A stretch of 7,960 nt of DNA from a virus (lineage: Monodnaviria; Loebvirae; Hofneiviricota; Faserviricetes; Tubulavirales; Inoviridae). The DNA is taken from IMG/VR virus record IMGVR_UViG_2529292905_000001. The stretch is one strand, 5' to 3'. Of this stretch, positions 1 through 3,000 are shown piece by piece; within the stretch, counting starts at the first letter, position 1; every line of letters starts with the position of its first letter. Position numbers: made by a program.

Positions 1-3000
1 GTGCTCATTTGCACGCGGTTTGCCAGCTTGAGTCTTCAACGCTGGGAAGATGCGGCAAACGGCAAATCGGCATACCAGCCAGCCTATATCCGTCATGCAC
101 AGGCCAATTATGAAAGAGGAGAAGCTTAAGTTCTGGAATCCTGAACGAATAACGACTACCGGAAAATCACTTCGTATCACTCAGATACGATTTAACATAA
201 TATACATTATGCGCACCAATGGTAAGGATGGCAGAATCTGGCGGGAATCGTTGACACTGGCCGTCAACTGGCTACTATCGACAGTGATTCAAAATCATCC
301 GTTTCTCCAAACGAATCAGAATCAAATGTCTGTCAGCAGTAAGTGAACGGCCTGACCTCACCAATCAGGCCTGTTCATCCAGTTAGTTGGTAAATCTGTA
401 CCTGATACACGAGAATCAAACACCACTTCTTCAGTGCCATCACCATGATGCCGGATAATCTGGTAACCGGATTGCGGGTTCTGGCTCTCAGCTTCATAAG
501 CAGCCCGGAATGCTGGATCTTTGAGAAGCATCACTTTCAGCTCCTGATGTGTCATGAATTTTTCCATGATAAGCCCCGATGAATGCTGCCGCGCCGAATC
601 AGCCATAACGCTGAAAATGGAAACTGTACGGCTTGGCCAACCCCGGACAGCAACAAAACAAGTTTTGTCACTGACCGGCGTTATCTTTCAAAACAGACAG
701 TTAACGATTTTTTGTCTGGTGTTTATGCGTGAAATTTCGTGCGTACGAAATTCACCACCAATAAACAAACGGACGATGACTGACCGGAAAAGCAATGCCG
801 TCAGCATCATGACCACGCATTACCTGATTGAGAAGCCTTCTGACTTCACGGCGCTCAGGCCTGGTCATCATCATATTGCGATACCAGGACGGCGATTTAT
901 CAAACCATCTGGCACAACTGGCAAAATGTGAACCTACACGACGATAAGACTTAAGGTGGCCACCGGGAAGTCGGTCACGCGCCTTATTTTTTACAGACAT
1001 AATAAATCCTCTAAGTAACTGAATACCTAGAAGATGTCGTACTGTTCATACCCCATAAAAGTTAACGCCATAATAAAAATCCATACAATCAGTTCAGGTT
1101 GTCCCGGAACAGTTCACCGCTCCTCGCGGCGCTGCGGGGCGTCGCCCTGCTCCGGTCAACCTTTCTGACCTGAAGCATCACCATAATATCAGTCTTGTTG
1201 CTTTCACTGGTACGGGAACCGAAGAAGCTCCAGCCGGAACTGGCCTTACTGTCTTTCTGTTCAGCAAGGCCACCAAGTAAAATAATATCACCATCTGCAA
1301 GGCTGACTTCGGTTGTTACATCACGCTTGATAAGGGTTGGCGAGTTATTGACGCCGGTTTCAGTGGTCACAAAGTTGGAAAGCTGCTGCTGAATCTTGAG
1401 ATCCATTGTCCGACTTTTGATTGATGGCGTCACGTTAAACAAAACACCGCTGGAACGATATTCAACGGATTGCGTGGTCGTATTGTTATTCACCGTAACA
1501 CTGCCCAGTACTGGCACATCAGAGCCGACTGAAAAAGACGCTGAGGCATTATTTTTTACCCGCAGTCGTGGCGCACTGACAACAGTAAAACGACTGTCGG
1601 TTTTCAGCAGATTGAAAATGGCATCAATGGAGCCGGTTCGAATATTGATAAAATTATCCAGTCCGGCAGCACCAACTGAAATATTGAATTTATCAGACAG
1701 AATTTTAGCCGCTAAAAGAATGCCGGAGCCGTCAGACTGCGAGGTCTGAACCTCAAAAACATAACCAGAAACAACCACTTCATCACTCATCGTATCCAGC
1801 GAAGTGACCAGTGTTTTCAGGATGGCGATATCCTCTTTCGTACCATAATAAACCAGAATATCACCGGTTCGATTGATGTAGTTGCTTGCCCCTGATGAAC
1901 CTTTTAGCGAATCGTCAGAAATCACGGCTCCACTGTTATTGAAGGAGCCTGAAACGTAGCCGCCAAGAATATCAGACAGGTAGGCAACAGAACGGTACTG
2001 AGGCGTATAAGTCCATGTAAAACGTGGCTTAACCGGCTCTTTCGGCGTATAGGGCGCGATAAAATCAACACCCTTTTTCGTCCATATTCGAATGTTCATA
2101 TTGCCAAGATAACGGGTTACAAATTCCCGTTCATCAATATCAGGTGTTAACCTGAATGTAATCATTCGTTCATCATTAACAAGCTGTGGATCTAGCATAT
2201 ACGGGACTTTAAGCACCTCACTGTAAATAAGAGAAATAGCCTCCGGTAGCTTGACTTTATTTAATTCAAGCTCTGCCCCTGCGAAAGCACATGAAGAAAA
2301 TAGTAGCGTTAATGCGAGTGAAATCTTTTTCATTATTTTTTCCCCGTATAAAGCGTCACACGCTCACCATCAATAATTCCGCTCATCAACATCCCTTTGT
2401 AATTAAAACTGGATGCAGGAACGGCACGCAAAACACCGGCACTGTTAACAAGAATCACAAACGCCCTGCCTTCACTGGTCATTCTCCCTGATATACGCCA
2501 CTCGGTTGAAAGTGGCGGTTCAGCTGGTTCTGAGGGAGTATCTGGTGCTGGAGTAGCAGCGGAAGAACGAAACATGGCCGCATCACGTACATCTGTTGTA
2601 GCCAAATCTGGCGAGGGATCGCTTCGGCCAAACGTGCTGAAAAATGAGTAAATCAGCCAGCCTGACCCGATAAACATCAATGGAAAAAGCACAAGAAAGA
2701 ACCTGACTTTGCCAGAATTCCAGATGCTCTGGCGTTTATCTGTCTGCTTTTCATTACCGTTATTTCCTTCATAGCTTTTGTAAAGTTCAAAAATATCAGG
2801 GTTATATTTATTGCGATAACTGGTGACGAGGTTGCTTTTATAGATTTTGTGGCCTGAATATACGTCAATGCAGTAATGATTATTCAGGCCCAACGCTTTC
2901 AGCTTGCGCATCCGGTAAGTTGTTTCTATTTTGTCTTTCAGAAAGCGAGCAATATTAGAAAGTGACTGATTTACAATAACCAAATCACAGCTAATACCCG

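Follow-up and report, generated by a model that had tools for sequence, protein, structure and literature searches.

A non-coding GC-rich stem-loop beside dif in a CUS-1/Ypf-phi-type inovirus prophage: a possible 3'-end structure of phage-sense RNA

Organization of the locus

The window analyzed in this study, that is, the whole 7,960-nt stretch of DNA, begins with a short segment of Escherichia coli chromosome (positions 1 to ~205), and the remainder is a filamentous (inovirus) prophage of the CUS-1/Ypf-phi type. Homology to the host stops at ~220 in 3,964 of the 5,426 complete E. coli genomes, and the remaining sequence is present in only 73 genomes. Prophage genes are encoded on the minus strand, the HTH repressor excepted (Table 1). 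The same layout, with integration at dif and two small ORFs adjoining the rebuilt dif, has been published for the CUS-1/Ypf-phi phages (PMC4266046). In strain CUWW06 the prophage forms a tandem array with a unit of 9,566 bp, and its replicative form is a 9,565-bp circular "plasmid"; NZ_CP128883 is an example of the 9.57-kb replicative form. Three matches came from the plasmid collection, namely an episomal replicative form, a copy integrated in a plasmid and a remnant, and no match was obtained in the phage collection using megablast and blastn.

Table 1. Features of the window and the evidence for them
Feature	Position	Strand	Evidence or remarks
Intact E. coli dif	190-217	minus	perfect match, 0 expected by chance
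Non-coding spacer, hairpin 1 to XerC arm	218-342	minus	ssDNA fold, alignments, occurrence on several backbones
Sigma-70 promoter-like site, TTGACA-16-TACTAT	251-278	plus	10/12 match; directed toward hairpin 1
Stem-loop (hairpin 1)	343-378	assigned to minus (phage-sense)	folds, conservation, strand asymmetry of stability in diverged copies
YPO2281 homologue, last phage-sense gene	358-567	minus	phrog_6642; 69 aa from ATG at 567
Small ORF	752-1000	minus	
Secretin/pIV	1089-2333	minus	
Zot/pI	2333-3358	minus	
DUF2523 protein	3362-3649	minus	
pIII-like protein	3662-5374	minus	
ssDNA-binding protein	5961-6278	minus	
Rep II/X	6290-7342	minus	
HTH repressor	7514-7960	opposite to other phage genes	

The dif site reads GGTGCGCATAA-TGTATA-TTATGTTAAAT, and the full sequence of this perfect minus-strand match is GGTGCGCATAATGTATATTATGTTAAAT. 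The annotated host neighbours on the hairpin side lie on the minus strand, downstream of dif, and are directed away from the prophage. On the phage side, the last phage-sense gene is a homologue of YPO2281, which is annotated in RefSeq as 358-555 and matches phrog_6642 end to end (E 1e-53; 33 homologues found); YPO2281 is known to adjoin attR (PMC4266046). The conserved part of the protein stops at ..SGTDLPT (~385), the tail running over the hairpin is not conserved, and the hairpin begins a few nucleotides past the conserved coding end on the same strand.

Two stop codons are found at the hairpin, namely TGA at 344-346 on the plus strand and TCA at 358-360 in the loop, which is TGA on the minus strand. 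The original prediction described the stem-loop as straddling the last stop codon; this overlap is present in the window but is not conserved in Klebsiella and Izhakiella. Owing to a 2-nt indel, the YPO2281 frame of the Klebsiella, Raoultella and L018 copies ends at the 5' foot of the stem, whereas that of Izhakiella ends upstream of the hairpin. Since the position of the stop moves among copies, the overlap was considered incidental and the hairpin non-coding. A plus-strand ORF at 50-346 spans the host/phage junction and dif, has no family match, and was rejected as a gene. This frame being spurious, the convergent open frames between which the hairpin was said to lie do not represent true convergence in the prophage.

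Structure and stability of the hairpin

The predicted stem-loop at 345-376, with 11 bp, one bulge and a 9-nt loop, is present and corresponds to a stem at 344-377 minus its outermost pair. On the plus strand, 344-355 (TGAACGGCCTGA) pairs with 365-377 (TCAGGCC-T-GTTCA), forming 12 Watson-Crick pairs (6 of them G-C) with a bulged T372 and a loop of 9 nt (356-364), and a G.T pair at 343/378 is optional as a closing pair. RNAfold extends the minus-strand stem by G.U pairs into the loop; because this extension is not conserved in Izhakiella, the loop was taken as 9 nt. Inspection of the sequence for attC-like and REP-like elements revealed that the consensus elements of both are missing, and these two readings were dropped.

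The RNA folding energy calculation proposed for both strands gave -18.7 kcal/mol on the plus strand (z -2.5) and -21.6 kcal/mol on the minus strand (z -3.2), and the corresponding ssDNA minimum free energies (MFEs) were -11.5 and -11.2 kcal/mol (z -3.6 and -3.4). Among the 40-nt folds of either strand in the whole window, the hairpin ranks third in stability. When the whole window was shuffled 14 times with dinucleotides preserved, two of the shuffles also contained a fold of -20 kcal/mol or better, and the stability of the hairpin, taken alone, is only marginally beyond chance. The case for the hairpin thus rests on its position and its conservation.

Conservation and portability of the attP-proximal module

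Together with the spacer, the hairpin (hairpin 1) makes up an attP-proximal module of ~165 nt (218-378), of which it forms the inner boundary. The spacer holds an imperfect middle hairpin (~283-335) and a hairpin 2 (250-268, GTTGAC/GTCAAC). As the original prediction required, the structure is conserved in related elements. Virtually unchanged copies of the hairpin with its 125-nt spacer occur at ~30 loci, and the host flanks beside them are of at least 10 kinds; the hosts named at the genome and plasmid loci are E. coli, Yersinia pestis and Klebsiella, and most of the other flanks belong to viral and metagenome contigs. These near-unchanged loci carry little information, because the lineage is almost clonal (~99% identical; PMC4266046). 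Four diverged forms of the module are compared with the window in Table 2.

Table 2. Hairpin 1 in the window and in diverged copies (MFE in kcal/mol; the values of the third line are those of L055)
Copy	Module identity	Changes	Sense RNA	Antisense RNA	Sense ssDNA
Window			-21.6	-18.7	-11.2
Izhakiella (L005/L068)	~80%	A.C beside bulge, extra foot pair, two loop changes, indels on both sides	-24.3	-16.2	-10.9
L052/L055/L067	90%	loop longer by 8-9 nt; bulged A paired with inserted T	-25.7	-13.7	-7.1
K. variicola plasmid remnant (L043)	98% over 153 nt	bulge deleted; one T.G pair	-26.3	-19.4	-10.9
Erwinia psidii (L007)	near-identical outside outer stem	outer stem lost; decayed copy	-17.6	-13.6	-8.7

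The stems are almost invariant, the loop accepts substitutions and the 8-9-nt insertion, and the bulge may be present, paired or deleted; the hairpin therefore appears to be structure-dependent rather than sequence-specific. Only the sense RNA fold keeps its stability across the diverged copies, and the antisense fold falls from -18.7 to -16.2 (Izhakiella) and -13.7 kcal/mol (L055). Stability of the sense RNA is maintained because the substitutions give G.U pairs, as do the two C-to-T changes of the L052/L055/L067 lineage on the sense strand, and the ssDNA fold of L055 is weak because the same lineage has two G.T pairs. Three stem changes are wobble-compatible on the sense strand versus one that is disruptive, a difference that is not significant. 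RNAalifold analysis of 10 module sequences returned a covariation term of +1.6, that is, no covariation, the divergence being too small. The asymmetry of stability between the strands points modestly to a role at the RNA level, on the phage-sense transcript.

The module is joined to different genes and different phages. The gene upstream of the hairpin is YPO2281 in most copies, but it is mostly deleted in L048 and L081, and in L055, whose core genes are 98% identical to those of the window, its place is taken by an oppositely oriented ORF of 81 aa (phrog_21003, E 4e-59) that starts ~40 nt past the hairpin. In L055, L074 and Izhakiella, the two feet of the hairpin coincide with breakpoints of homology. 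L081 shares rep and ssb with the window (96% at the amino acid level), and homologues of the structural genes were not detectable in it. The Izhakiella element L068 shares only positions 204-693 of the window, and its rep, ssb, coat, pIII, pVI and Zot counterparts were not detectable by homology. In both L068 and L081 the equivalents of Zot, pIII and pVI have no match to those of the window prophage, and the secretin is 25% identical. The occurrence of the module in phages with unrelated assembly genes, one of them without detectable rep, argues for dependence on host machinery: a signal read by phage assembly proteins or by Rep should not travel in this way, whereas a signal read by the host can.

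Distant relatives at the gene level (the Brenneria loci, L020 and L034-L038) possess a short, different module without hairpin 1. Relatives with a different short module often have another GC hairpin straight after the last stop, for example CGGGAAC-GCCA-GTTCCCG in Brenneria L006.

Speculatively, enterobacterial inoviruses that integrate at dif might use the module 218-378 as a portable cis-acting cassette that depends on the host and passes, along with the XerC arm, between otherwise unrelated phages, although we regard this as doubtful. Such a cassette could be, for instance, a minus-strand origin primed by RNA polymerase or an antisense-RNA unit, and the hairpin would then be its functional boundary, acting as a stop for the primer or transcript or as a structure that excludes SSB.

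Hairpin 1 itself is an ordinary stem-loop between genes, in a prophage family that is already known. Of more interest are two by-products of this analysis, the portable attP-proximal module and another hairpin, at 639-682. The conservation of the 639-682 hairpin is far wider than that of 343-378.

Relationship to dif and the attachment site

The XerC arm of dif (207-217) serves at the same time as one arm of the folded phage attP, and the tandem junction and the right prophage end place the crossover within 204-217. These sequences (L001:21680-21790 and L045:2725-2822, respectively) show two inverted dif-like sites, GGTTCGCACAA-TGACG-TTATGCTAAAG and TTTCAACATAA-CGAGTCGCACA-TTATGCGCACC, which flank a GC hairpin. 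On the packaged strand, attP is a forked ssDNA hairpin of 96 nt (L001:21690-21785; -29.1 kcal/mol, z -6.9), and only its XerC arm lies inside the window. Ypf-phi has been reported to carry a "pair of XerC/XerD sites in inverted orientation" and was classed as CTX-type (PMC4266046, PMC4246890).

Hairpin 343-378 is separated from the dif/XerC arm by 126 nt, and a scan of 300-420 that allowed up to 2 mismatches found nothing resembling a XerC or XerD arm. It had been suggested that the stem-loop could be part of the phage attachment region; the attP is instead the separate fork, and the hairpin lies at a distance from it without Xer arms. The comparison with attP regions of relatives that had been proposed likewise went against this suggestion, in that the hairpin is missing from other phages that carry this XerC arm. 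On the basis of the reconstructed fork and the Xer-arm scan, the attP reading was rejected.

Transcription termination and RNA 3' ends

Like an intrinsic terminator, the hairpin is a GC-rich stem-loop positioned directly 3' of a gene on the sense strand. An intrinsic terminator also has a U-tract, defined here as ~5 or more U in the 8 nt right after the stem, and this is absent on both strands, the tails CTTACTGC (minus) and TCCAGTTA (plus) each containing 3 T in 8. The tail of the hairpin scores ~-2.5, versus -7.15 for a perfect tail, and a consensus terminator scan of the window did not list the hairpin. The reading as a canonical or bidirectional terminator was rejected, since neither strand has a U-tract. 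Of the bidirectional terminator that was first proposed, what survives is the location just 3' of the last phage-sense gene and a sense RNA fold that is kept; the U-tract, the symmetry and the convergent frames are lacking. The proposed function of insulating the prophage from host transcription found no support, as no host gene reads toward the prophage on the hairpin side, and the only insulation possible at the hairpin would be from phage to host, not from host to phage. With no U-tract and no detection by the consensus scan, the hairpin would terminate transcription weakly or in a non-canonical way, or would do no more than stabilise 3' ends.

Bidirectional termination is better matched by the GC hairpin that caps the attP fork; this candidate lies outside the window between convergent phage genes and has the flanks TTTTC and TCTTTAG, with tail scores of -4.1 and -3.4. 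In the literature we found no description of hairpin 343-378 and no transcript mapping for YPO2281 or CUS-1.

Taken together, hairpin 343-378 is quite possibly, though short of probably, a non-coding 3'-end structure of the sense-strand RNA, or a non-canonical terminator, of a CUS-1/Ypf-phi prophage. The structure, the position, the modular conservation and the sense RNA stability of the hairpin were observed, and we infer that transcripts may end there. The hairpin would act in the RNA of the phage-sense (window minus) strand, at the end of phage sense transcription, either as a weak non-canonical terminator or, more probably, as a barrier to 3' exonucleases, in which case it would define and stabilise the transcript end after termination further downstream. 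Its role would be independent of whichever cargo gene precedes it, and it is retained where the upstream gene was deleted (L048, L081) or replaced (L055). In the prophage copy beside dif, it would be the sole structure limiting phage read-through into dif and the host gene beyond. Against a 3'-end structure stand the L055 lineage, which has no sense gene ending at the hairpin; the replicative form, in which the attP-fork tip provides a better terminator-like hairpin ~190 nt downstream; and the lack of a U-tract, of covariation, and of the hairpin itself in distant gene relatives.

Cis-acting elements of CTX-type enterobacterial inoviruses such as Ypf-phi of Y. pestis and CUS-1 of E. coli K1, including terminators, the packaging signal and the minus-strand origin, are largely unmapped. 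Setting the hairpin apart from the attP fork and placing it in a mobile module narrows the possible sites of such signals, and the hairpin would influence prophage read-through across dif into host genes.

Alternative explanations

It is rather unlikely, but deserves consideration, that the hairpin is an ssDNA signal on the packaged (plus) strand, either as part of a host-dependent minus-strand origin, primed by RNA polymerase or primase in the manner of the Ff intergenic region or of G4-type ssi sites, or as a packaging signal. In the circular phage, the ssDNA of the whole intergenic region forms a series of hairpins (-56.8 kcal/mol, z -6.6), which resembles the Ff intergenic region with its packaging hairpin directly after gene IV, but this z score stems mostly from the attP fork. 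In integrative inoviruses, a GC-rich hairpin of only 20-26 nt can serve as the packaging signal (bioRxiv 10.1101/2023.12.30.573655), CTG triplets occur 8-13 nt 3' of the hairpin, and the module is retained as a unit whichever gene flanks it. In position and strand the hairpin corresponds to an Ff-type packaging signal; however, such a signal would be expected to be specific for the assembly proteins of its phage and to change along with them, and in L068 and L081 the module occurs beside assembly genes unrelated to those of the window prophage. As to a minus-strand origin, the promoter-like site at 251-278 has a polarity fit for priming the minus strand, and TTGAC is located in the stem of hairpin 2; in the folded ssDNA, however, the -35 and -10 elements would not be in a promoter arrangement, and hairpin 1 contains neither. 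In addition, the ssDNA stability of the hairpin is not maintained in the L055 lineage (-7.1 kcal/mol), and the more widely conserved 639-682 hairpin is the better candidate for a cis-acting replication or packaging element. The hairpin might also be read from the plus strand, in a transcript from 251-278, as a CUS-1 antisense RNA of ~95 nt overlapping the 3' end of the YPO2281 homologue or, given a plus-strand cargo gene, as a 5' leader or attenuator; we consider this improbable. With a start near 285, the hairpin would span about +58 to +93. The Izhakiella and L055 lineages retain the two hexamers despite a varying spacer, but they are altered elsewhere (-10 AACTAT in L081, -35 TTGATA in L007), and promoter-like matches in the window number 17, against 18.7 expected from shuffles. 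In L055 the plus-strand ORF phrog_21003 past the hairpin, with a weakened plus-strand fold, would fit a need for read-through, whereas the plus-strand hairpin has no U-tract and its fold loses stability as the copies diverge. In Rfam, 280-376 (plus) weakly matches the OrzO-P antitoxin sRNA (RF02083), with which it shares the 7-nt loop CUCACCA; the match scores 21.2 bits against a gathering score of 60 (E 0.2-1.2, chance level), with a 22-nt insertion and no U-tail, and an unsystematic look identified no toxin-like partner gene. As Rfam identities for the hairpin region, OrzO-P (21 bits) and MIR2617 were both at chance level and were rejected.

It is likewise unlikely that the hairpin is without function, being either a palindrome that arose by chance or hitch-hikes with its neighbours, or a scar left by recombination at a site of cargo-gene exchange. 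Comparable folds in 2 of 14 shuffled windows, the predominance of copies from a lineage that is ~99% identical and clone-like, the lack of covariation and the homology breakpoints at both hairpin feet (L055, L074, Izhakiella) are consistent with this reading. On the other hand, the stem is kept in three lineages with modules 80-90% identical, across indels on both sides, a loop insertion and three different solutions for the bulge, and in those three diverged lineages the sense RNA stability is held or raised. Least probable by far is that the hairpin belongs to the attachment site or is an accessory site for XerCD recombination of the CTX-phi type. Its side relative to the XerC arm never changes, its distance from the arm is ~126 nt, and it travels with this arm, but the folded attP is fully explained by the fork of two inverted dif-like sites (PMC4266046, PMC4246890), 300-420 is devoid of Xer-like arms, and the arm also occurs in phages without the hairpin.

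Comparison with known systems

In CTX-phi, two dif-like sites in inverted orientation fold the phage ssDNA into a forked hairpin, attP(+) (Val et al. 2005, as cited in PMC4266046 and PMC4246890), and the phage studied here has one as well: the other prophage end supplies an inverted partner with which the XerC arm at 207-217 pairs, and an intact dif is rebuilt at the prophage 3' end. Hairpin 343-378 differs from such an attP in its sequence, in lying 126 nt inside the phage and in having no Xer-binding arms.

In the Ff phages (f1/M13/fd), the intergenic region opens right behind gene IV with the packaging hairpin A, and hairpins B and C of the minus-strand origin come next (bioRxiv 10.1101/2023.12.30.573655). 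Here too, a chain of hairpins on the packaged strand occupies the non-coding stretch past the last sense gene, and the first hairpin abuts the stop. However, the stem is 12 bp, compared with ~22-24 bp in the packaging signals of f1 and IKe, the module is common to phages with unrelated assembly genes, and its ssDNA stability is not conserved. Hairpin 343-378, whose inner stem is 7 bp, resembles the packaging signals of Xanthomonas integrative inoviruses (20-26 nt; bioRxiv 10.1101/2023.12.30.573655) in being a small GC-rich hairpin of an integrative inovirus, but their stem consensus GGX(A/-)CCG(C/T)G is absent from hairpin 343-378; they lie in or near rep and their loop bases are essential, whereas the loop of hairpin 343-378 varies.

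Compared with the intrinsic terminators of Enterobacteria, the hairpin has no U-tract (3 U in the first 8 nt) and its 9-nt loop is at the upper limit. What it shares with these terminators, and with the protective 3' hairpins left after Rho-dependent termination, is a GC-rich 12-bp stem directly after the last gene, and its strong sense RNA fold (-21.6 kcal/mol) is a further likeness to the 3' hairpins of Enterobacteria.

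The attP-proximal end in related phages

A segment of about 490 bp at window 204-693, comprising the attP arm, the non-coding module (window 218-378), the YPO2281 homologue and the hairpin upstream of it, was 80% identical to that of a 7.7-kb Izhakiella inovirus (L068), and no other homologous genes were detectable between the window prophage and this phage except the secretin, which was 25% identical. In a second related locus (L055), the core genes were 98% identical to those of the window, the module only 90%, and the cargo gene was different. The attP-proximal end thus seems to be commonly exchanged in a mosaic manner. 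The element carrying the attP module in L074 is rearranged, because a fragment of the repeat region of the pIII-like gene adjoins a copy of the module without hairpin 1 (the stem-loop at window 343-378). The coordinates of the features are listed in the table.

Copies were also present on Klebsiella plasmids. The window's phage was found to be integrated in the 248-kb IncFIB/IncHI1B plasmid NZ_CP132684 of K. pneumoniae (L042, locus 1470-1500). The insertion site there is dif-like, ATTTAACATAA-CGTACA-TTATGCGCACC, and the record contains two matching places. Plasmid pKGB1a of K. variicola (L043) carried only a remnant equivalent to window 231-412.

Repeats, hairpins and promoter-like site of the window
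Feature	Window	Strand	Description
Promoter-like site	251-278	+	sigma-70, near-consensus TTGACA-16-TACTAT
Conserved block	582-640		..GCTGATTCGGCGCGGCAGC..; follows and adjoins hairpin 639-682
Strongest hairpin of window	639-682	-	ssDNA -15.5 kcal/mol, z -4.5
Terminator-like hairpin	1006-1035	-	ATCTTCTAGGTATTCAGTTACTTAGAGGAT TTATTATG, T-rich tail; between secretin gene and first small ORF
Tandem direct repeat	4440-4493		27 nt, 74% identical; inside pIII-like gene
Inverted repeat	7412-7468		27 nt, 81% complementary, 3-nt spacer; in 170-nt gap between rep and divergent HTH repressor

Hairpins and repeats outside the module

The hairpin at 639-682 was retained in eight inovirus lineages, among them phages whose structural genes are unrelated (L046, L081 and L005), and its position was constant, upstream of the variable cargo gene adjoining attP. 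Across lineages it showed wobble-to-Watson-Crick changes and one double change. This hairpin is a candidate cis element, which may act as an origin, a packaging signal or a cargo promoter/leader.

The terminator-like hairpin downstream of the secretin gene suggests that the two small ORFs would be transcribed separately, as a cargo or moron unit. The inverted repeat next to rep is probably an operator or promoter, or possibly the plus-strand origin. In Brenneria rubrifaciens (L006, about 2840-2870 and 3180-3200), a distant relative, the same 18-nt hairpin was located in opposite orientations on both sides of the YPO2281-like ORF (CGGGAACTGGCGTTCCCG upstream and CGGGAACGCCAGTTCCCG downstream).

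Promoter-like site, hairpin 2 and attP

The promoter-like site is directed from the attP side to the phage interior, in antisense orientation relative to the last genes. The hexamers were preserved in diverged lineages with a variable spacer, and the counterpart of the site in L055 lies upstream of an 81-aa plus-strand ORF (phrog_21003). The -35 hexamer of the site in the window falls within hairpin 2 (250-268), for which one compensatory change (GTTGAT/ATCAAC) was found in Erwinia psidii. In Rfam, window 280-376 (+) weakly matched OrzO-P, a type I antitoxin sRNA, scoring 21 bits where the gathering score is 60 (E 0.2-1.2); the 7-nt loop (CUCACCA) is identical, the stem is similar, and the match starts within a few nucleotides of the transcript start predicted from the promoter-like site. 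This match is at chance level and is a lead only.

In ssDNA, two inverted dif-like sites fold into a fork of 96 nt (-29.1 kcal/mol, z -6.9), and the tip of this forked hairpin is a GC hairpin, GGCCGCTGCG..CGCAGCGGCC. Because of its TTTTC and TCTTTAG flanks, this tip looks like a bidirectional terminator between the convergent phage genes. The fork is the true attP of the phage, of the CTX type, and is located at window 207-217 together with 21690-21785 of the tandem junction (L001) and 2725-2822 of the right prophage end (L045), the latter two lying beyond the window.
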